A DNA stretch of 44,282 nt from a virus (IMGVR_UViG_3300010352_002455), one strand, 5' to 3'; counted from the stretch's first letter, positions 19,169 through 43,602 are shown. Translations and numbers: made by a program. The notes: generated from the letters alone by a model not told the origin.

Positions 19169-19574
19169 AACAAAACAAAAATATTAATAGAAAAAAAAAC
19201 GGGTGGGACAGATAAAATTCAATTAATTTAAATTTTCCAATAGCAATTTTTTAACATCCATTTTATTTTCTATTAAATTATTCTGTCACTGTTTTTTTGC
19301 AACCTTTTTTTCTAAAAAAAAGGTTTCGTGGGAAGATTGAGTCCGTTGCACGCCCTACCATTTTGGGAAATTTCCAAAAAGTTTTACAGGAAATATGATT
19401 TATAACTATTTGATAGCCAAATAATTACAATTGATATTTTGTTAATAACTTTGTTTAAATTGTTGAAAACTAATGCTTTAAATATTTTTTTGTATTAATA
19501 TTTTTTGTATTTTTATATACAATTCAATCGGGCAACCAGACGCCCGACATTTAAAAACTTAAATTCACAACACA

Positions 19575-29862: not shown

Positions 29863-29878
29863 AAGAAAACCTTTTCAA

Positions 29879-29886
29879 CAAATCTA
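29879..29886 (-). promoter_or_regulatory. Candidate Bacteroidota-type -7 promoter box (TAGATTTG)
   Basis: The minus strand reads tagatttg 16 nt upstream of the ATG at 29862, matching TAnnTTTG. No clear -33 TTTG at canonical spacing. Confidence 0.25.
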
Positions 29887-29996
29887 ATACAAAAAATAAA
29901 GAAAAACAGACTTTCATTATTTTGAAATAAAAAAATTTTATGTTTGGCAAAAGTTATTTTTCCGTTCTACTTACAATCTGATTTTCGGAAAAAAAA

Positions 29997-30273
29997 GTGT
30001 AATTGTGTAACCTAGCACTTTTTAAGGCTTATAATATTAATATTTAATCGGTTACACTTTGGTTACAGTTTTTAAAAATAGCGGTTACACTTTTTTTTTC
30101 GGGAAAAATCGAGTATTTTTGAATTTCTCTGAAAAAAAATCCTAAAAAGTGTAACTTTGTGTAACCTAAGTGTAACCTTTTGTGTAACCTCTTTTATTAA
30201 TATCTTATCTTCTAATTTTCAATAAAATAAGAATAAAAATCATGTTGATTTTCTATTGGTTACAAAGTTACAC
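29997..30273. repeat. Iteron-like cluster of about 12 GTGTAAC(C) / (G)GTTACAC motifs (candidate replication origin or activator-binding array)
   Basis: Forward copies at 29997, 30005, 30149, 30159, 30170 and 30182. Inverted copies at 30050, 30061, 30083, 30258 and 30267. All lie in a 560-bp non-coding gap next to the primase-helicase gene. Confidence 0.6.
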
Positions 30274-30330
30274 TTTTTTTGAGAAAATTAGAGGTTGACA
30301 AGGGGAAACAGAAAATCCGGCCGGCAAAGG

Positions 30331-30363
30331 AAAAAAAAAAGAACACCGAGCTGAAGCTCGGTG
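30331..30363 (-). terminator. Intrinsic terminator (second of a tandem pair) downstream of the primase-helicase
   Basis: On the minus strand, caccgagc-ttca-gctcggtg (8 bp perfect) is followed by ttcttttttttt. Confidence 0.65.
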
Positions 30364-30378
30364 TGAATAATTTGAAAC

Positions 30379-30407
30379 AAAAAAAGCGGCTTTTTGCCGC
30401 TTTTTTT
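30379..30407. terminator. Intrinsic terminator (first of a tandem pair; symmetrical A/T flanks)
   Basis: aaaaaaa-gcggc-ttttt-gccgc-ttttttt, starting 18 nt after the primase-helicase stop. Confidence 0.65.
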
Positions 30408-30424
30408 GACACTCAAGACAATAT

Positions 30425-33580: not shown

Positions 33581-33892
33581 TTAACTAAAATAAAAGGTTT
33601 TACCGGTTCCGAATTTTTGTTGCTTAATAGTAGCCATAAAAGGAAAATCTGTTTTAGGTATTTTAGATAATGCTTCCTTTATTGGAGTAGCATTAGTAAA
33701 AAACTTTTTTTCAGATCCTTCAAATAATACCTTAACTATATATCTTCCATCCCCGTGCCGTGTTTTTACATTCGCTTCAAAATCAATTACCTCAATTTCG
33801 CAATTTACAACGTCTTCAACTGAAATTACAGGAACGGAAAAGATGTGTTTTCCTTCAAAAGGATCTATGTTAAAATCAGAAAATTTATTCAT
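33581..33892 (-). CDS. Hypothetical protein, apparently translationally coupled to the DGR RT
   Basis: 103-aa ORF whose start overlaps the RT stop by 8 nt. By eye it looks beta-rich and near-neutral in charge, so it is not Avd-like. Confidence 0.5.
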   Translation of the reverse strand: MNKFSDFNIDPFEGKHIFSVPVISVEDVVNCEIEVIDFEANVKTRHGDGRYIVKVLFEGSEKKFFTNATPIKEALSKIPKTDFPFMATIKQQKFGTGKTFYFS

Positions 33893-34931
33893 ATCTTATT
33901 ATTTTTTTAAGAAGGTTATTTGAGTTACAATGCTTTGCCCAACCGATATGAGGGGCAATTGCTTTCTTATAATCTAAAATAGAAATGTCTTTTTTATTCA
34001 ACTTTGCAGCTTTTCTGCAAAATCTTTTCTTTATGCTTTTTCGCATCCGGATATGTGTATGATAAAATACATATCCTACAAAATCAATACCTCTTTTTTC
34101 AATAGGGAAAACCTGATAATTGCCCTTTATTTGCAACTTTAGATTGTCTTTCATATATCTGTCTATCTCAAGATACAAATCTTGCAAATACGGCTTATTT
34201 TGAGCTAAAATTACAATATCATCTGCATAGCGATAATAATATTTTACCTGTTTTTCCTCTTTAATACAATGATCGAAATAAGTCAAATACAGGTTTGCAA
34301 AAAATTGACTTAAATAATTCCCTATCGGAACACCAGGAGCGGAATCAATTATTTCATCAAGTAATTTTAAGAGCTTAACATCTTTGATTTTTTTACGAAT
34401 AATAACCTTTAGGATATCATGATTTATGCTTGGATAAAATTTCCTAATATCAAATTTCAAACAATATTGAGTGTCTGAAACATTTTTTAAATCACGTTTT
34501 AAATCTCTTAAAACAGCGTGTATTCCTCGTTTTTTTATGCAAGAATATGTATTTGAAATAAAAACAGATATCCATATCGGTTCCAAGATGTTCATAATGG
34601 CATGGTGAACTATACGATCACGAAAAGGAAGTCTGTAAACAAGTCTTTCTTTCGGGTCGTGTATCATAAAAACACTATATTCAGACGTTACATAAGTTTC
34701 TGATATCAGTTCCTTTTGTAACTCATTTATGTTGTTGTTCAAGTTTTTTTCAAACAATCGAACACCATAACTCTTTTCTTTTCCTTGACTTGCTTTGTTA
34801 TATGCAAGATAAAGATTGTCAATTTCACAGATCTTTTCGTATAAATTTCCTATTCTTTTCATGCCTTTGCTTTTATTATGAGCTTTCGTTATTACTACCA
34901 GCACATTTTTTAATATGTTATTTTTTGCCAA
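33885..34931 (-). CDS. DGR-type reverse transcriptase
   Basis: ..VPIGNYLSQFFANLYL.. (the DGR-typical SQ motif), ..YYRYADDIVILA.. (YxDD) and N-terminal ..IGNLYEKICEIDNLYLAYNKA... The true start may be the internal ATG at 34862 (MKRIGNLYEKI..), which would leave about 100 nt between TR and RT. Confidence 0.9.
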   Translation of the reverse strand: MAKNNILKNVLVVITKAHNKSKGMKRIGNLYEKICEIDNLYLAYNKASQGKEKSYGVRLFEKNLNNNINELQKELISETYVTSEYSVFMIHDPKERLVYRLPFRDRIVHHAIMNILEPIWISVFISNTYSCIKKRGIHAVLRDLKRDLKNVSDTQYCLKFDIRKFYPSINHDILKVIIRKKIKDVKLLKLLDEIIDSAPGVPIGNYLSQFFANLYLTYFDHCIKEEKQVKYYYRYADDIVILAQNKPYLQDLYLEIDRYMKDNLKLQIKGNYQVFPIEKRGIDFVGYVFYHTHIRMRKSIKKRFCRKAAKLNKKDISILDYKKAIAPHIGWAKHCNSNNLLKKIIRYE

Positions 34932-34959
34932 GAGGCAGGGTCTTTACCTTTAAAATCGT

Positions 34960-35041
34960 ATTGCATAGGTGGGAGGTGTCGGTCGCATTCGCATTCGAGT
35001 TGTTGTAATTCGAGTTGTTGAAAACGAGCCCCGACGGCGAG
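34960..35041 (-). repeat. DGR template repeat (TR)
   Basis: The coding-strand register reads ..SPSGLVF-NNSNYNNSNANATDTSH.. with 7 AAY codons. It aligns without gaps to 35144-35225 and 35531-35612, and differs only where the TR has A on the minus strand. Confidence 0.9.
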
Positions 35042-35074
35042 CTCCAAAAAGGCAAACAACCTGTTGTCATTTTA

Positions 35075-35434
35075 TTATAGAATAATGTTTTTATAAACTT
35101 CTGTAAAAGTTTTACCTGCATGATCGGATGCTTTTTCCGATTCAAAGCAAAGGCGGGAGGCGTCGGCCGCAACCGCATACGAGACGTAGTAACTCGAGCA
35201 GTCGAAAACGAGCCCCGACGGCGAGGATGGGTCTATCCGAAACACCGGAAACCATTTTTTTTGATTGGTGTCCATCATGTCCGGTTTCCATCCATCGTTG
35301 ATTGCTTCTGTTAATACAATTGCATTATACTGATCTTCAAAATATGCCCGTAGGTCATCAGGTGAGTTTGAAAAATCTACTTTTGGTCTTTTGGTAACCT
35401 CAAATGCTTCATCAAGTGTTTCTGTTTTTTTCAT
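35075..35434 (-). CDS. DGR variable (target) protein 1, small and leaderless
   Basis: 119 aa. The C-terminal ..SSPSGLVFDCSSYYVSYAVAADASRLCFES.. contains VR1. Confidence 0.85.
   Translation of the reverse strand: MKKTETLDEAFEVTKRPKVDFSNSPDDLRAYFEDQYNAIVLTEAINDGWKPDMMDTNQKKWFPVFRIDPSSPSGLVFDCSSYYVSYAVAADASRLCFESEKASDHAGKTFTEVYKNIIL
35144..35225 (-). repeat. DGR variable repeat 1 (VR1), including an IMH-like 3' end
   Basis: In the 74-bp core (35152-35225) there are 13 mismatches to the TR, all at TR adenines. The 3' end is GC-rich (cgcctcccgcctttgcttt on the coding strand). Confidence 0.9.
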
Positions 35435-35461
35435 TTTTTTTTGTTTTATGCCTTTCGGCGG

Positions 35462-35941
35462 TTATTTAATAAATTTGGCGTATAATGCTGTAAAAGTTTT
35501 GCCTGCATGATCAGACTTTTCTTTCGATTCAAAGCAAAGGCGGGAGGCGTCGGTCGCAATCGCAACCGAGCAGTCGTAATACGAGTAGCAGAAAACGAGC
35601 CCCGACGGCGAGGATGGGTCTATCCGAAACACCGGAAACCATTTTTTTTGATTGGTGTCCATCATGTCCGGTTTCCATCCATCGTTGATTGCTTTAGAAA
35701 TAGTTTTAAGCTTTCTATAGACAATTTCATCATCAGTGAAGCCATTTCGTTTCATGTCAATTTCATTTATTTGTTCTTCGTCCAATTCATCACAGGCAGT
35801 TTGATATGATATAACCCTGTCAATTACACTTTTGGAAAAGAAATTCTTTCCAAAACTATCTTCAAGCATTGATTTGAATTCTTTAGAAGCTGTTTTATAC
35901 AACTCTCTTGCTTTTTTTTCTTCAATTTGTAATGTTTTCAT
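35462..35941 (-). CDS. DGR variable (target) protein 2, small and leaderless, paralogue of target 1
   Basis: 159 aa. The C-terminal ..INDGWKPDMMDTNQKKWFPVFRIDPSSPSGLVFCYSYYDCSVAIATDASRLCFES.. contains VR2. Confidence 0.85.
   Translation of the reverse strand: MKTLQIEEKKARELYKTASKEFKSMLEDSFGKNFFSKSVIDRVISYQTACDELDEEQINEIDMKRNGFTDDEIVYRKLKTISKAINDGWKPDMMDTNQKKWFPVFRIDPSSPSGLVFCYSYYDCSVAIATDASRLCFESKEKSDHAGKTFTALYAKFIK
35531..35612 (-). repeat. DGR variable repeat 2 (VR2), including an IMH-like 3' end
   Basis: In the 74-bp core (35539-35612) there are 12 mismatches to the TR, all at TR adenines. The fixed IMH-like differences are the same as in VR1. Confidence 0.9.
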
Positions 35942-36080: not shown

Positions 36081-36305
36081 TTATCCCAAATGGGGAATTA
36101 TATATTTTTCAAAATGGATTAATCTTTTTCCACCGTATCTTTGCCAAGATGAGCTATTAATCTTTTTACAATACATCCAAATTGACCAATATCCCTTTGG
36201 ATAGCCACCATTTGTGTCTATTGCTAATTTGTATCTATTTCGCTCAATAGAAACTCTTTCAATTAGCCAGAAAATAAGAATTATTTCAATTAAATCTAAA
36301 TTCAT
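36081..36305 (-). CDS. Small hypothetical protein with a hydrophobic N-terminus
   Basis: The track ORF starts at 36353, but that extension reads through the tRNA-like element. The ATG at 36305 gives MNLDLIEIILIFWLIERV.. (74 aa). Confidence 0.4.
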   Translation of the reverse strand: MNLDLIEIILIFWLIERVSIERNRYKLAIDTNGGYPKGYWSIWMYCKKINSSSWQRYGGKRLIHFEKYIIPHLG

Positions 36306-36329
36306 ATTGTTTGTTTTAAATTGTTTTTG

Positions 36330-36372
36330 CTCCGGAGCGAGGAATCGAACCACGCTGAAGAACCATTCCGGA
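36330..36372 (-). ncRNA. tRNA-like minihelix or tRNA 3'-half fragment (acceptor stem plus T-arm only)
   Basis: The minus strand reads tccgga(a)-11 nt-cgtgg-TTCGATT-cctcg-(c)tccgga-g. It has a canonical GGTTCGATTCC T-loop, a 6-bp acceptor-like helix and a G at the discriminator position. There is no D-arm or anticodon arm. Confidence 0.45.
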
Positions 36373-36378
36373 TTAGTT

Positions 36379-36948
36379 TTAGTCGAGGATCACCCAGTCT
36401 TCTGCTAAGATGTCTGTTTGTGAGGCCAACCAGCCATTTACAATTCTACCATTAGCATCTTTAAGACACAAGTAGGCAGTAAATTCTACCACATCACTTT
36501 CATCGATTTCAATTGCTTTTCCATCCATATCGAAGCAATCATGCAAATAGTAGTCTTTTACTGTTTGCGGGAGTGATTTGATGTTGTTTGCTACAACATC
36601 AACCCTGATTTCGTCAGCGGGGCGCATAAAAATAAACATTCCTTTTCCATTCCATCCTTCTCGTGCTACTCTTTTCCCTTGTTTTAAGGCTTTAATAGCA
36701 TCTCCGAATGTGAGGTTCCCATTTTCTGTTTCGTTAAAATCAAAAAGGACCTTACACTCTTTTCCTTCAACGAACAGCCTTGCCGCATCCGGATTAACTG
36801 TTCCGATTGAAATATTTCCATACGGAGTCATTTCAAAAAACATGTCGTTTTCAAAAGAACCGCATGTCACAACATCAAGAGTTATTAATTCTCCAGAACC
36901 GCGAACCTCTTTTTTTGTTACTTTAAATTTTGTAAGTACTTTGCTCAT
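36379..36948 (-). CDS. DUF2829-domain protein (Tad2-like anti-Thoeris candidate) with a ~80-aa N-terminal extension
   Basis: ..LTFGDAIKALKQGKRVAREGWNGKGMFIFM.. and ..NGWLASQTDILAEDWVIL match the DUF2829 consensus at both ends. Confidence 0.7.
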   Translation of the reverse strand: MSKVLTKFKVTKKEVRGSGELITLDVVTCGSFENDMFFEMTPYGNISIGTVNPDAARLFVEGKECKVLFDFNETENGNLTFGDAIKALKQGKRVAREGWNGKGMFIFMRPADEIRVDVVANNIKSLPQTVKDYYLHDCFDMDGKAIEIDESDVVEFTAYLCLKDANGRIVNGWLASQTDILAEDWVILD

Positions 36949-36960
36949 ATTATTTGTTTG

Positions 36961-37405
36961 TTTTAATTCCCGGCATCCGGCCGGTACGGTTAATTGCTCC
37001 CGCCTGAGACTTCAACTCAGGAGTGTGTCACTCGGGATCCAGAAATTGTAAAACAATTTCGTCGTTTATATGCCCTGATTTTTCAGGGGAGATTTCGTGT
37101 TACTGTCCGACTGTCAAGCGTGGTACTAATTTCCGCTTTGCCACTCTGAATTAACAGAGAAAAACCTGCCTTCGCCGTAGGCCCTACTTTCTCAATCATT
37201 GAGGTTTAAAAATAAAGAACGTCTCTTTTTTTGTCGGAGGTAGCTCTCCGATTGTGCCCTGCAGGAAAAACCAATTTCGGCAGGGCTTGAATGTGTTGAA
37301 TGTTATATCAATAAAACAAATTCAATGAAGTTAATCCGGGTGATCTGTGGCTTTGGCGTTAAACCTGTTTTCTTTTAAGAAAACGAAAGGGTTTTCCCAC
37401 CTTTT
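36961..37405 (-). ncRNA. Candidate structured non-coding RNA or long structured 5' leader of the DUF2829 gene
   Basis: No plausible ORF (stops in all frames), and visibly GC-richer than its flanks. At least 8 clean hairpins: 36970-36984, 37042-37060, 37073-37088, 37234-37251, 37256-37286, 37367-37384 and 37389-37398, plus a three-way junction at 36998-37037. The strand is assumed from the flanking genes. Confidence 0.4.
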
Positions 37406-37470
37406 TATTTTTTTTAAAAATAGATTTTGATAATATGGAATAGGTAATAATTCTATATATAAATAGCCAT

Positions 37471-37478
37471 CAAAACTA
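37471..37478 (-). promoter_or_regulatory. Candidate -7 box (TAGTTTTG) upstream of the structured region
   Basis: The minus strand reads tagttttg, matching TAnnTTTG, about 65 nt upstream of the first hairpin. No clear -33 element. Confidence 0.2.
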
Positions 37479-37527
37479 AAGTGCCCAGTATATAAAATCA
37501 TCATTAACATCTCGATTTCTCCTTTTA

Positions 37528-37971
37528 TTATTTAAAATCAAAGTGACCTTTTTTTTTCATTTCTTCATAAAAAGAAAAGAGTTCTCCTGTACGTAACATT
37601 TCTATTATTCCAATTGCTTCACTAATTGTAATAAATGGAATAACCCCCCCCAATTTTTTTGGAAAATGTTTTGGGGCAAGCCCTCTTTTTTTAATAATTT
37701 CTATAGCTAAATCATATATATCTTCGAAAATATCTGAATAATAAATACATTTTTTCCCAACTTGTAAAAATTCCATAACATAACCCTCTGCCTCTTCGAA
37801 TGTATTAAGTTTTCCAAGCGGTGGATAATTAAAATTGAAAGATGCAAGTGCATTCCCGTGCGTGTCAACAGCCCCCCATCTTGTTTCATTAAGTTGTGCA
37901 GGAGGAAGATAGTTTTGTTTAATTTCAACAAAAAATTTTCCAAGATTTTCCCTGATTCTGTAAGTTCTCAT
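37528..37971 (-). CDS. Hypothetical protein
   Basis: 147-aa ORF. Confidence 0.5.
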   Translation of the reverse strand: MRTYRIRENLGKFFVEIKQNYLPPAQLNETRWGAVDTHGNALASFNFNYPPLGKLNTFEEAEGYVMEFLQVGKKCIYYSDIFEDIYDLAIEIIKKRGLAPKHFPKKLGGVIPFITISEAIGIIEMLRTGELFSFYEEMKKKGHFDFK

Positions 37972-37976
37972 AACAA

Positions 37977-38522
37977 TTATTTCTGAATTTTAATATTATT
38001 TAATATCTGCAGCGTATCGCCGAAGCAACTACTAATCGCAATTGCTTTATAAGTCGGCTTTTTGAAGATGCACTTTCTTTTTTTGTATATAGCAATCAGG
38101 AGACTGTCTGTGTGAGAATAGTCGGTTATATAGACATTGCTATTTTCAACACAGCCGGCAATGGAAAAGCATTTGTCTGTTATCTCAAAAGCTGCTATAG
38201 AGGTATTTGTAATTGTATCATATATATATACAAGGGTGTCGCGCCTGATCAGCGTGTCTCTATAGCTATATTTTACGTTTACAACATTTGTGACCTGTCC
38301 GGCACGGATCCCAAATTTCTTCAATTCTGTAGTGATATCTGAGTGATATTTTTTTAACTCCTTAGCTGTAAGGGTTTGAAGCTCGTTCATCTGTCCGGTT
38401 ACTTCGACTCTAAAATTTTCTGATATCCGATTTTTTTCTTTTGTTACGGAGATAACAATAGCTGAAAGAATTCCGACAGCTAAAATCAAGACTGCAATTA
38501 TGATAAACAGATATTTTTTCAT
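37977..38522 (-). CDS. Hypothetical membrane-anchored protein
   Basis: 181 aa with an N-terminal hydrophobic helix (MKKYLFIIIAVLILAVGILSAIVI..). Confidence 0.5.
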   Translation of the reverse strand: MKKYLFIIIAVLILAVGILSAIVISVTKEKNRISENFRVEVTGQMNELQTLTAKELKKYHSDITTELKKFGIRAGQVTNVVNVKYSYRDTLIRRDTLVYIYDTITNTSIAAFEITDKCFSIAGCVENSNVYITDYSHTDSLLIAIYKKRKCIFKKPTYKAIAISSCFGDTLQILNNIKIQK

Positions 38523-39266: not shown

Positions 39267-39781
39267 ATTGATTTCAGGGCGTTAATTAATTGATAAAGAG
39301 GGGCAATTCCCTGAAATGATTTAAAAAACGAATTAGGGGTGTATATTCCTGAACGACTTTCTGCTGCCTTTATATTGCAATACCAGATTGAATTGTTATC
39401 ATTGTTATTACAGTGATAATCAAAACTCTTTCTATCAATTTCAATATTGAAATGATTTACTAGTTTTCTAAGTTCGAGTGTGAGAGACTCAAGTTGTTCT
39501 TTTGTGTATGATGCGAAGAACTGATGCCCCCTATATCCGCGTCCACACACGTCCGTTACATCGGTTATATTTCCTTCAGCCTGTCCCGGTAAACTTGGCA
39601 GCCATTTTTTTTCTTCGGATAAAAAAACAGGACCTTCATTTTCAAGATATATTTCCCCAAAAGTCAAATTAGCAAGATTAAGAAATGAATTTTGTGGATA
39701 AACAACTTTTCCATTTTTAAAAATAACACAACCAGGATTACTTACTGATCGTAAGTTGTTAATTACTATTTGTGTATTCAT
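39263..39781 (-). CDS. Hypothetical protein
   Basis: 172-aa ORF. Confidence 0.5.
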   Translation of the reverse strand: MNTQIVINNLRSVSNPGCVIFKNGKVVYPQNSFLNLANLTFGEIYLENEGPVFLSEEKKWLPSLPGQAEGNITDVTDVCGRGYRGHQFFASYTKEQLESLTLELRKLVNHFNIEIDRKSFDYHCNNNDNNSIWYCNIKAAESRSGIYTPNSFFKSFQGIAPLYQLINALKSI

Positions 39782-40341
39782 ACAATATTATTTTGTACCG
39801 CAAACCTCACGATGCCCATCTTTGACCATGTGCCCAGTTTGCGATTAATTTTATTGATTTGATTTCTTACTGTCACGGTAGCTGTACCAACTCTGTCGGC
39901 TATTTGTTTGTCGGCAAGATCCTGTCTCACCAAGCCAATTATTTGCAATTCTCTTTTAGAGAGATTCTCTGCATTTTGCTTACAAATAAAACGCTCTCCG
40001 GCGCAATGACCTCTGAAAGGACAATAAACAAATTCTTCGTTTATATTTCCCTGCGCATCGACATCAGATTTCTGATCATTATTTATAAGCTTACACTTAA
40101 TAAACTGAAATACTTCTTCATTTTCGCTCTTACAGCCCATAGCGGCCAAGCCGGTTCTGTATCCGGGATGTTTATCAAGATAATCCATAATGATATTGAA
40201 AATATCATCTGTGATATCGTCGGCTATAAAAAAATCCCTCTTTTTTCCGCCTTGAAAGCAAATAATTGCATCCTGGTATTCGTAGAATTCAATTTCAGAA
40301 AATTCTGGGATAAGACAATGTGGAATGTTTGGTGTATTCAT
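39778..40341 (-). CDS. LuxR/GerE-type HTH transcriptional regulator
   Basis: C-terminal ..LSKRELQIIGLVRQDLADKQIADRVGTATVTVRNQINKINRKLG.. is a canonical LuxR-type HTH. A Cys-rich segment precedes it. Confidence 0.7.
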   Translation of the reverse strand: MNTPNIPHCLIPEFSEIEFYEYQDAIICFQGGKKRDFFIADDITDDIFNIIMDYLDKHPGYRTGLAAMGCKSENEEVFQFIKCKLINNDQKSDVDAQGNINEEFVYCPFRGHCAGERFICKQNAENLSKRELQIIGLVRQDLADKQIADRVGTATVTVRNQINKINRKLGTWSKMGIVRFAVQNNIV

Positions 40342-40869: not shown

Positions 40870-40881
40870 GACAAATATAAT

Positions 40882-40925
40882 GAGATTTTTCAATTATGAA
40901 ACAAAATAATAGAGATTTTTCAATT
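40882..40925. promoter_or_regulatory. 14-bp direct repeat GAGATTTTTCAATT x2 bracketing the repressor start codon
   Basis: Copies at 40882-40895 and 40912-40925. The ATG is at 40896. Confidence 0.4.
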
Positions 40926-42474: not shown

Positions 42475-43602
42475 ATGGATTCACAAAAAAAAATATTTGT
42501 TGATTATATACCTTGTCAGGTGTCTTTCAAAAAAAGTTGCCGTCTATATTTTTATGCGTATAACCCAGAAATCGGCAAACTTAAAAGAGTTGTAATTAAA
42601 TGCAATACAATAAAAAATCGTTCTGAAAGGATTAAATATGCAAAGTCTTATTGTGAAGTTATTAACGATAAATTGAGGAACGGATGGAATCCTTTTGTTG
42701 ACAAAATGATGACAAGGGGATATGTAACATTAGAGTATGCAATTAATAATTTTTTGAAAGAAAAAGGAAAAGACAGTCGTCCTGCTACTAATAACAGCTA
42801 TATGTCCTACTGCGGAACCTATAAAACATGGCTACAGGATATTAATATGCTAAATAGTTACTGTTTCCTTTTTACAGAAACAGAGGCAAATAGATATATG
42901 TCTTATATTAGCTCTACTCGCACAATTACTTCACGAACATGGAATAATTATATTCGTTTTTTTACAACAATGTTTAACAATTTTATTGAAAAGCAATACT
43001 TAAAAAAGAATCCATTTTCGAACATAAAGAGAAAAAAAGTTGATGAAAAGAAAAGAGAGATAATTCCTCCAGATACGAGAAAAAAAATGAAAGAATATCT
43101 TATAAATCACAATTTTAATGAGTATTATATAATAATGTTACTATGCTATAGATGTTTCATTCGTCCAAAAGAAATAGGGTGTCTTAAAATTCAGAATATT
43201 GATTTCAAAAACAATCAAATAGAAATCCCTTCCGATATTGCTAAGAATCATCACAACAGAATTGTAGGCATTCCGGATGAAATAATGGAATATCTGAAAA
43301 CATTACAGGGTTATCCGAGAGATTACTATATCTTTTCAACGCGATGGAAGCCAGGAAAGCAATTAAAGCACACAAGGGATATTGGAAAAGTTTGGAACAA
43401 AATGAGAGAAGATTTACAGCTTCCGACAAAGTATCAATTTTATAGCCTAAAAGATACCGGAATAACAGAAATGCTTGAGGCAGGTGTCCCGGCAAAATTT
43501 GTCAAAGAATTAGCAGATCATAGCAGCCTTGATATGACGGAAAAATACACGCATAAAACTGCAGCTTCCGAAATTTTAAAATATAATAAATTGGAGTTCT
43601 AA
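42475..43602 (+). CDS. int: Tyrosine recombinase / phage integrase
   Basis: 375 aa. C-terminal catalytic region ..FIRPKEIGCLK.., ..KNHHNRIVGIP.. and ..ELADHSSLDMTEKYTH (H-x-x-R-like box and catalytic Tyr). Confidence 0.85.
   Translation: MDSQKKIFVDYIPCQVSFKKSCRLYFYAYNPEIGKLKRVVIKCNTIKNRSERIKYAKSYCEVINDKLRNGWNPFVDKMMTRGYVTLEYAINNFLKEKGKDSRPATNNSYMSYCGTYKTWLQDINMLNSYCFLFTETEANRYMSYISSTRTITSRTWNNYIRFFTTMFNNFIEKQYLKKNPFSNIKRKKVDEKKREIIPPDTRKKMKEYLINHNFNEYYIIMLLCYRCFIRPKEIGCLKIQNIDFKNNQIEIPSDIAKNHHNRIVGIPDEIMEYLKTLQGYPRDYYIFSTRWKPGKQLKHTRDIGKVWNKMREDLQLPTKYQFYSLKDTGITEMLEAGVPAKFVKELADHSSLDMTEKYTHKTAASEILKYNKLEF

Follow-up and report, generated by a model that had tools for sequence, protein, structure and literature searches.

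A mosaic intergenic block with a constrained hairpin-bearing core and a polymorphic 220-nt insertion upstream of a Tad2-like anti-defence gene in a temperate phage

The window analysed here, i.e., the complete 44.3-kb contig IMGVR_UViG_3300010352_002455 (44,282 nt), represents a temperate siphovirus-like phage, and the subject of the present study is a hairpin-dense block of about 440 nt upstream of its gene for a Tad2-like anti-defence protein (Table 1). A first-pass annotation had described this block as one candidate structured RNA, either a long regulatory leader or riboswitch-like element of the anti-defence gene or an independent noncoding RNA (ncRNA). A comparison with five diverged relatives reveals a mosaic that consists, in the direction of the gene strand, of the end of a small open reading frame of 59 codons (ORF59), a spacer that evolves neutrally, a constrained core of about 100 nt, a 220-nt insertion that splits this core and is missing from four of the five relatives, and an A-rich leader. 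The block can therefore no longer be treated as a single unit, since 220 nt of it are an insertion. Of the proposed regulatory leader or ncRNA, a constrained element of about 100 nt with conserved hairpins stands, but a single RNA of about 440 nt does not, with the 5' 75 nt coding and half of the block inserted. Judged from the sequence, it stays a reasonable idea that the core part, and only this part, is a cis-regulatory RNA ahead of the Tad2-like gene.

Table 1. Coordinates of the block, its parts, and the neighbouring features in the window (MFE, minimum free energy; SD, Shine-Dalgarno; DGR, diversity-generating retroelement)
Feature	Coordinates	Strand	Remarks
Block under study	36961-37405	minus (gene) strand	upstream of the Tad2-like gene
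ORF59	37331-37510	minus	59 codons; SD-like AAGGAG 8 nt upstream
AT-rich spacer	37287-37330	minus	44 nt after the ORF59 stop; imperfect hairpin there not conserved
Conserved core	37213-37286 + 36965-36992	minus	~100 nt; hairpins A and B, A-tract, AU hairpin, CCGG hairpin
Hairpin A	37256-37286	minus	GCCCTGC-17 nt-GCAGGGC, inner GAAA/UUUC stem; in MFE fold and RNAalifold consensus
Hairpin B	37234-37251	minus	TCGGAG-AGCTAC-CTCCGA, loop invariant; in MFE fold and RNAalifold consensus
A-tract and AU hairpin	37213-37233 (hairpin 37214-37228)	minus	7-10 A, then AAAGA-GACGT-TCTTT; closes the 5' half of the core
Core 3' half	36965-36991	minus	(T)AACCGTA, CCGGC-CGGAT-GCCGG hairpin (36970-36984), GAATT; kept in all relatives
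Insertion	36992-37211 (+/-1 nt)	minus	220 nt; GC 0.44; in the window and L096 only
Candidate ORF38	37083-37199	minus	38 codons, MIEKVGPTAKAGFSLLIQSGKAEISTTLDSRTVTRNLP; AT-rich leader; on the strand of all neighbouring genes
3' tail of the insertion	36992-37090	minus	99 nt; hairpins and three-way junction (36998-37037)
A-rich, SD-less leader	36949-36964	minus	runs to the ATG of the Tad2-like gene
Tad2-like (DUF2829) gene	36379-36948	minus	downstream neighbour; Pfam PF11195, E = 3.4e-24
147-aa ORF	37528-37971	minus	upstream of the block
DUF6549 gene	37977-38522	minus	upstream of the block
DGR reverse transcriptase	33885-34931	minus	RVT_1, phrog_1423
Rfam RT-17 RNA	34866-34942	minus	50.9 bits
DGR template repeat	34963-35041	minus	79-nt repeat
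DGR variable repeats	VR1 35147-35225, VR2 35534-35612	minus	in tandem paralogous target genes (phrog_11581)

Taken as a whole, the block has an excess of hairpins. It contains 12 perfect ones (stem of ≥5 bp, loop of 3 to 9 nt), compared with 3.7 +/- 2.1 in dinucleotide shuffles (P = 0.006), and only 3.9% of the same-size windows of this genome hold as many. All helices that had been listed in the first-pass annotation are present at the positions given there and most of them recur in the MFE fold, and the GC content of 0.43, compared with 0.355 for the whole window, agrees with the GC richness noted there. The MFE z-score against dinucleotide shuffles is -3.77 for the minus strand and -3.38 for the plus strand; since the latter folds almost as well, energy alone does not pick the strand. 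Better folding than in shuffled controls is found for the complete block, for the region 37212-37335 (z = -3.86) and for the 3' tail of the insertion (z = -3.19), but not for the entire insertion (z = -1.3). The absence of known RNA signatures was borne out by ARAGORN, which found no tRNA or tmRNA gene (0 in the window), and by Rfam scans of the window and of region 36700-37800, neither of which assigned a family to the block. At the gathering threshold, the sole match in the window is the RT-17 RNA outside the block; the three matches in region 36700-37800 at E <= 10 are all far below threshold, and the uninterrupted core of relatives L094 and L092 yielded nothing near it. Group I introns are recognised by a 3'-terminal G and a P1-P9 core and group II introns by a 5' GUGYG and a domain V; the insertion begins with UUUU(U)AAACC, ends with GCAAU(U), and has no Rfam intron match, and both intron types were rejected. 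A template or variable repeat of a DGR was likewise rejected, as the block has no similarity to either. Terminator-like sites were not found in 36300-38100 (0 sites), and the gap between the 147-aa ORF and the Tad2-like gene contains no Bacteroidota-type promoter, the sole TAnnTTTG match being located within ORF59.

Copies of the block on eleven metagenome contigs are 100% identical and hence uninformative. Diverged relatives were reached only via the neighbouring proteins in a large protein collection, and the five that were compared, all from metagenome assemblies, are L092 (L092/L093), found via the 147-aa protein, which is 95% identical to that of the window, and four that were found via the DUF6549 protein, namely L096, L095, and the pair L094 and L099, with a DNA divergence in the DUF6549 gene of 7%, 13%, and 20 to 21%, respectively. 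The sample comprises three independent core lineages and two copies of the insertion, and the clade is known from few metagenome contigs. No real match was obtained by blastn of the gap, the insertion, and the core against GenBank phage and PLSDB plasmid records, and scanning IMG/VR with the neighbouring 147-aa and DUF6549 proteins as anchors retrieved no relatives. The element is absent from all 80 IMG/VR loci with Tad2-like genes and from the loci of the more distant full-length Tad2-like homologues (L122 to L124, L129, and L130), and a profile hidden Markov model of the core and an nhmmer search with the insertion returned only the known copies from all fetched DNA. Scans for hairpin A plus the core flank in IMG/VR and the JGI metagenomes gave chance matches only, as checked by blastn, and the JGI collection is apparently without this phage; these scans, like those of the species genomes described below, used exact patterns, by which relatives below ~90% identity would be missed.

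The gap had been described as lacking a credible ORF. Judged from its conservation and codon usage, ORF59 is a small translated ORF, so the gap is not ORF-free. It was called by gene callers on all metagenome copies, its 3' 75 nt had been counted into the "noncoding block", and it encloses the hairpins listed at 37389-37398 and 37367-37384, the first of which is broken in L092. The ORF has 59 codons in L092, 57 in L096 and L095, and 17 in L094 and L099. All versions share a G-rich context at the start codon, GGGGGAAAYGAG(AG)ATG, and end in the peptide FNA(K/I)xxxHPx-stop, and the middle varies. In the codons shared by the window and L094, the differences are distributed 5:4:12 over codon positions 1:2:3 (hand count), and the codon usage is gene-like, with a score (0.057) that 2.4% of spurious open frames attain. 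A G-rich SD-like motif (AAGGAG or GGGGGAAA) precedes the small ORF in the window (37511-37527) and in every relative, and in L094 and L099 the ORF is cut to 17 codons, yet start context and C-terminal peptide are kept. This pattern of an upstream small ORF resembles that of regulatory leader peptides, as far as the sequence allows such a comparison.

Conservation among related phages, proposed earlier as a check, was found for one part of the block. The spacer carries indels in L092, L096, and L095, and its divergence from L094/L099 (57%) is close to that at the fourfold sites of DUF6549 (52%), which indicates that it evolves at a neutral rate. In the core, by comparison, 10 of 103 positions differ from L094, versus 25 of 48 fourfold sites (Fisher p = 3e-8), and only 1 to 3 of 102 positions differ from L096 and L092. 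With a divergence of ~10% versus ~52%, the core is thus, on comparative grounds, under strong purifying selection and functionally constrained. The 7-bp outer stem of hairpin A is invariant in the six sequences and its loop is nearly so, AAAAAAAGAGACGTTCTT in the segment of the A-tract and AU hairpin is invariant in 6/6 sequences, and the 3' half reads AACCG-CCGGCCGGATGCCGG-GAATT. The second pair of hairpin B is C-G in the window, L096, and L092, U·G in L094 and L099, and A-U in L095. The CCGG hairpin is weakly supported: one change, in L096, is U·G-compatible, and the two in L092 and L099 break the pairing. The RNAalifold consensus contains hairpins A and B, the AU hairpin, and the CCGG hairpin, with nearly all pairs invariant. 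Pairing in the U·G variants of hairpin B (L094/L099) and of the CCGG hairpin (L096) survives only in minus-strand RNA, and the evidence leans towards a core that acts as RNA on the gene strand. A pairing of the ORF59 end with the CCGG hairpin, which occurs in single-sequence folds of L094, L099, and L096, is absent from the consensus fold, has no covariation, and was rejected.

A 10-mer within the 3' half of the core, CCGGCCGGAT, with the 8-bp palindrome CCGGCCGG, is present in exactly two copies on the minus strand (36975-36984 and 30315-30324). Each lies in one of the two longest intergenic regions of the phage, which is AT-rich, and when at most one mismatch is allowed, 5 matches are found versus 0.57 expected.

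The insertion is located immediately 3' of CTTTA(T) and is missing at the same junction from L092, L095, L094, and L099. The empty sites read CTTTAACCG (L094/L099) and CTTTATAACCG (L092/L095), and the filled site reads CTTTA[220 nt]TAACCG. About half of the block is thus taken up by a segment that contains six clean hairpins, the three-way junction, and the pseudoknot proposed in the first-pass annotation. Its six perfect hairpins compare with 1.4 in shuffles (P = 0.006), and the MFE of the whole insertion is no better than that of shuffles (z = -1.3 and -1.5). Going by the distribution among the relatives, one gain is the parsimonious history, because deletion would require the identical loss to have occurred repeatedly, in L092, L095, and L094/L099. 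Only 2 of 220 positions differ between the window and L096, compared with 8 of 63 fourfold sites (p = 1e-4); these are the exchange C37123G and a 1-nt deletion located 3 nt upstream of the ATG of a candidate ORF of 38 codons (ORF38). The former abolishes a pair of the proposed pseudoknot in the sole other copy of the insertion, and the pseudoknot is not upheld. A second copy was found neither in the 44-kb window nor in 1.5 Mb of fetched loci nor in phage and plasmid records, and exact-pattern scans of IMG/VR and 185,579 species genomes with five sub-patterns gave chance matches only.

ORF38 is intact in L096, where C37123G, read in codons, changes T to S as the only exchange, and its codon usage is gene-like: the score of 0.034 ranks at the 16th percentile among segments of real genes, and 3.9% of spurious open frames attain it. 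The plus-strand ORFs of the insertion have a noncoding-like codon usage, and the longest of them (51 codons) had 0 matches among 1.84 billion representative proteins. ORF38 is the better coding candidate. It is followed by the 3' tail with the hairpins CCCTGA-AAAA-TCAGGG, which overlaps the ORF38 stop, and GAAATTG-TTTTA-CAATTTC, and this tail folds with an MFE of -30.7 kcal/mol, a value that is matched by 2 of 200 shuffles.

The gene downstream of the core varies. The Tad2-like gene is present in the window, L096, L094, and L099, L095 has an 82-codon ORF that is similar only to the N terminus of the Tad2-like protein of the window, and L092 has an unrelated short ORF. The core is therefore not a Tad2-specific leader, and the tie to the anti-defence gene made in the first-pass annotation is further loosened by the distant Tad2-like genes that lack the core. 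With respect to the upstream side, all four combinations of presence and absence of the 147-aa gene and the insertion occur among the window, L092, L096, and L095, which indicates that recombination or repeated gain and loss is active in the region.

Overall, the alignments and shuffles establish the mosaic architecture, the constraint on the core, the polymorphism of the insertion, and the surplus of hairpins. As an explanation, we regard as rather probable a succession, on the early-operon strand, of the end of a small ORF, neutral spacer, a constrained cis-acting core, a moron-like insertion, and an A-rich leader. ORF59 would be translated and end at 37331, to be followed by neutral spacer and then by the core of about 100 nt, which would act in cis within the early polycistronic transcript. 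As an intercistronic RNA signal, the core may set the processing or stability of this transcript, or read-through into, or translation of, whichever cargo gene follows. In the window phage and in L096, it would have been split by a GC-richer moron-type insertion of 220 nt, which may bear a 38-codon ORF and then a compact tail with hairpins and a three-way junction. From the distribution of the insertion and the pairing of the core, we infer both the RNA-level action and role of the core and the route by which the insertion arrived. Two more far-reaching proposals are that the core represents an undescribed cis-acting RNA of temperate Bacteroidota phages and that the insertion represents a new miniature mobile cassette. 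In the first, the core could serve in anti-termination, in the manner of put or nut sites, or in processing, and would mark a slot for variable cargo, including anti-defence genes; in the second, the insertion, with its micro-ORF and structured RNA tail, would spread between co-infecting phages via the conserved flanks. We regard these proposals as rather unlikely.

Several observations weigh against the proposed mosaic with a core acting as RNA. The covariation that had been suggested as a test is not significant, with 0 compensatory pairs among the three distinct lineages (MAFFT/RNAalifold), and the variation at the second pair of hairpin B is, after gap-free realignment, matched by 160 of 500 shuffles, a comparison of three distinct sequences. 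The near-total conservation of the core including its loops would be just as compatible with a DNA site bound by a protein. Downstream of hairpins A and B come ACAAUC and CAAAAAAA, respectively; as both hairpins lack a U-tract, they are not canonical terminators, which this phage does have elsewhere. The strand, the ends, and the RNA-level action of the core are things that we infer from aligned sequences. As for the insertion, its low divergence from L096 could reflect function or mere recent exchange, both of the L096 differences weaken the predicted stems in which they lie, and none of the collections searched yielded a homologue. ORF38 was reported by no gene caller, and tblastn against phage records gave nothing meaningful.

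An RNA-level role of the core is favoured here with limited confidence, and its main alternative is a DNA-level operator, in which the inverted repeats would form an internal control point of the early operon and be bound by a regulator of the phage or the host, e.g., the GerE/LuxR-type product of the gene at 39778-40341. To this alternative we concede a modest chance. The near-complete conservation, loops included, together with the near-palindrome AAAGA-G-ACGT-TCTTT is more typical of protein recognition, all listed stems are perfect Watson-Crick palindromes, the GerE-domain regulator is encoded upstream, and an exact second copy of CCGGCCGGAT lies in the other large intergenic region (30315-30324). 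However, the C-to-U changes in hairpin B (L094/L099) and the CCGG hairpin (L096) break the DNA symmetry and keep the gene-strand RNA pairing, no Bacteroidota-type promoter motif is located in or beside the core, and hairpin A, hairpin B, and the AU palindrome each occur only once in the window. That the core and the insertion, or even the whole block, form one structured ncRNA or riboswitch-like leader, with the insertion as an optional peripheral domain comparable to the expansion domains of other large RNAs, would be in agreement with the folding of the whole region (z = -3.8) and of the 3' 99 nt of the insertion (z = -3.2), with a mere 3 differences between the window and L096 in 37300-36949, where the flanks differ by 7 to 33%, and with an insertion point that falls between helices and destroys no core hairpin. 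A segment that four of five relatives do without is nevertheless dispensable, the insertion as a whole does not fold better than shuffles (z = -1.3), no supported helix joins it to its flanks, both L096 differences weaken predicted stems including the pseudoknot, Rfam gave no match with or without it, the block begins with 75 coding nt at its 5' end, and the gene downstream of the core varies; a single ncRNA of ~440 nt is accordingly unlikely, and we rate its probability as low.

The insertion might also be a small non-autonomous transposable element, i.e., a palindrome-associated derivative of the IS200/IS605 family or a miniature inverted-repeat transposable element (MITE), whose hairpins would be the recognition structures of a transposase. 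The precise presence/absence polymorphism at one site in conserved sequence, the lack of a long target duplication, and the hairpins near both ends are what would be expected of such an element. The filled site has TA on both sides, and the single TA in L094/L099 and the TATA in L092/L095 look like empty and footprint sites. In addition, the composition is foreign to the phage, the insertion is far less diverged than neutral sites, and its presence is incongruent with the neighbouring gene content, but the incongruent distribution is explained equally well by homologous recombination via the conserved flanks. Only a single insertion site is known, without a second copy in the 44-kb window or the 1.5 Mb of fetched loci and without a related match for five exact sub-patterns in IMG/VR and the 185,579 species genomes, or in the phage and plasmid records. 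Terminal inverted repeats were not found by inspection, and the ends, TTTTTAAACCTCAATG and ATTGCTCCCGCCTGAG (the reverse complement of the 3' end), are unrelated. The fold of the insertion has no long-range terminal pairing, TA is all that flanks it on both sides, the left hairpin CTCAAT-G-ATTGAG is unlike the right hairpin CCTGAG-N7-CTCAGG, complementarity between guide and cleavage site of the IS608 type was not seen by inspection, and the window encodes no transposase. A transposon-like origin is thus possible, with the polymorphism itself as its sole support, and its probability appears small. Finally, the open frames of 38 to 51 codons on both strands might be remnants of a decayed protein-coding gene, which the first-pass annotation had named as an outcome that would refute a structured RNA. 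This is very unlikely: none of the frame fragments has Pfam or PHROG similarity at E <= 1, the 51-codon plus-strand ORF has no counterpart among the 1.84 billion representative proteins and a noncoding-like codon usage, tblastn with ORF38 gave nothing meaningful, and the core is conserved without a frame-like pattern, the relatives differing by non-triplet indels.

The preferred interpretation of the insertion follows the concept of the "moron", a term of Hendrix and colleagues for extra DNA between genes that are adjacent in related phages. In agreement with this concept, the insertion precisely separates sequences that adjoin each other in four related phages, differs in base composition from its surroundings (GC 0.44 versus 0.355), and lies on the operon strand, on which it may bear a small ORF followed by hairpins. 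Unlike typical morons, it is far smaller, its ORF38 is a candidate only, it has no recognisable promoter or canonical terminator, and it lies inside a constrained noncoding element rather than at a plain gene junction. Small non-autonomous elements, e.g., the palindrome-associated elements derived from IS200/IS605, MITEs, and the MPMEs of mycobacteriophages, have a size of ~200 to 450 nt. The insertion shares with them its size, its richness in hairpins, the precise intergenic presence/absence polymorphism, and the absence of a sizeable target duplication, but lacks terminal inverted repeats, similar left and right hairpins, further copies in all searches, and a cognate transposase.

With respect to the core, the early operons of lambdoid phages offer a comparison, as their nut sites carry boxB hairpins and the put sites of HK022 consist of two adjacent stem-loops that act in cis on the RNA polymerase. 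The core likewise has two adjacent stem-loops that are conserved in loops and stems, and these lie in the early-operon transcript of a temperate siphovirus, upstream of delayed genes. However, it has no sequence or Rfam similarity to these sites, no dependent terminator was identified, and it is located ~3.5 kb from the presumed early promoter instead of just downstream. The promoter-early stem-loop (PeSL) cassettes of T4-type phages are present in many copies per genome and contain a recognisable promoter. Like PeSLs and the linkers of modular evolution, the core is a hairpin-bearing conserved noncoding sequence that flanks variable cargo and around which gene content is shuffled, but it is single-copy in the window and without a recognisable promoter.

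The current study exemplifies that a hairpin-rich and GC-rich gap can mimic one large RNA gene while being a mosaic, and a handful of relatives sufficed to separate its coding, constrained, neutral, and inserted parts. What emerges is a noncoding element of about 100 nt, ~5x better conserved than neutral sites, which directly precedes an exchangeable cargo slot, occupied in most relatives by a Tad2-like anti-defence gene. If the core controls the expression of this slot, it would provide a handle on how temperate Bacteroidota phages time or dose their anti-defence genes. The insertion could exemplify very small cassettes that move between phages.

The lifestyle and the probable host of the phage are apparent from other parts of the window. 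An integrase is encoded at 42475-43602, together with a tape-measure protein and a ClpP-like protease, and the nearest relatives of the terminase are from Flavobacterium, Cellulophaga, and Polaribacter phages. SD-like motifs precede just 5 of 51 window genes (~10%), and a Bacteroidota-type promoter match, TTTG...TAnnTTTG, is located at the divergent control region 40872-40905; both the sparse SD-like motifs and the promoter match fit a Bacteroidota host. The block is situated within a long minus-strand early operon, between this promoter match, ~3.5 kb away from the element, and terminators at ~30340-30400.

The Tad2-like protein has an N-terminal extension of ~70 residues (36739-36948) outside the Pfam Tad2 domain (residues 80-187). 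A stand-alone ORF of 82 codons in L095 (3421-3669) opens with the same sequence as this N terminus, and the extension may therefore be a separable module. A full-length homologue with 52% identity to the Tad2-like protein of the window is present in L122 (ENA ERZ4216102 NODE_709, 39 kb) and L123. On the 39-kb contig, the homologue is located directly upstream of a type IV-like CRISPR-Cas set, whose precomputed Pfam labels comprise Csf1, Cas6 (a faint match), RAMP (a weak match), PAPS_reduct, and Csf3.

About 1 kb downstream of the block, on the minus strand, the window encodes a complete DGR (33885-35941). The mismatches between template repeat and VR1 are located at template adenines in 14 of 14 cases, and the same holds for the VR2 mismatches within the 79-nt repeat. 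The RT-17 RNA looks like a DGR spacer RNA between template repeat and reverse transcriptase, as suggested by its position.

Two further intergenic regions are dense in hairpins. A gap of 560 nt (29863-30424), which follows the gene for a DUF5906 primase-helicase, contains two canonical terminators (~30340-30400), and beyond these there are many copies of GTGTAACC/GGTTACAC in both orientations. This array is likely an iteron-type replication origin or a regulator-binding array, and in the related phage L129 an analogous array, of ATTACAAAT, follows the Tad2-like and primase genes. The third hairpin-dense intergenic region of the window (19169-19574), from which transcription diverges, has 15 hairpins per 445 nt and a palindromic AAAAAACCTTTTTTTTAGAAAAAAAAGGTT segment.

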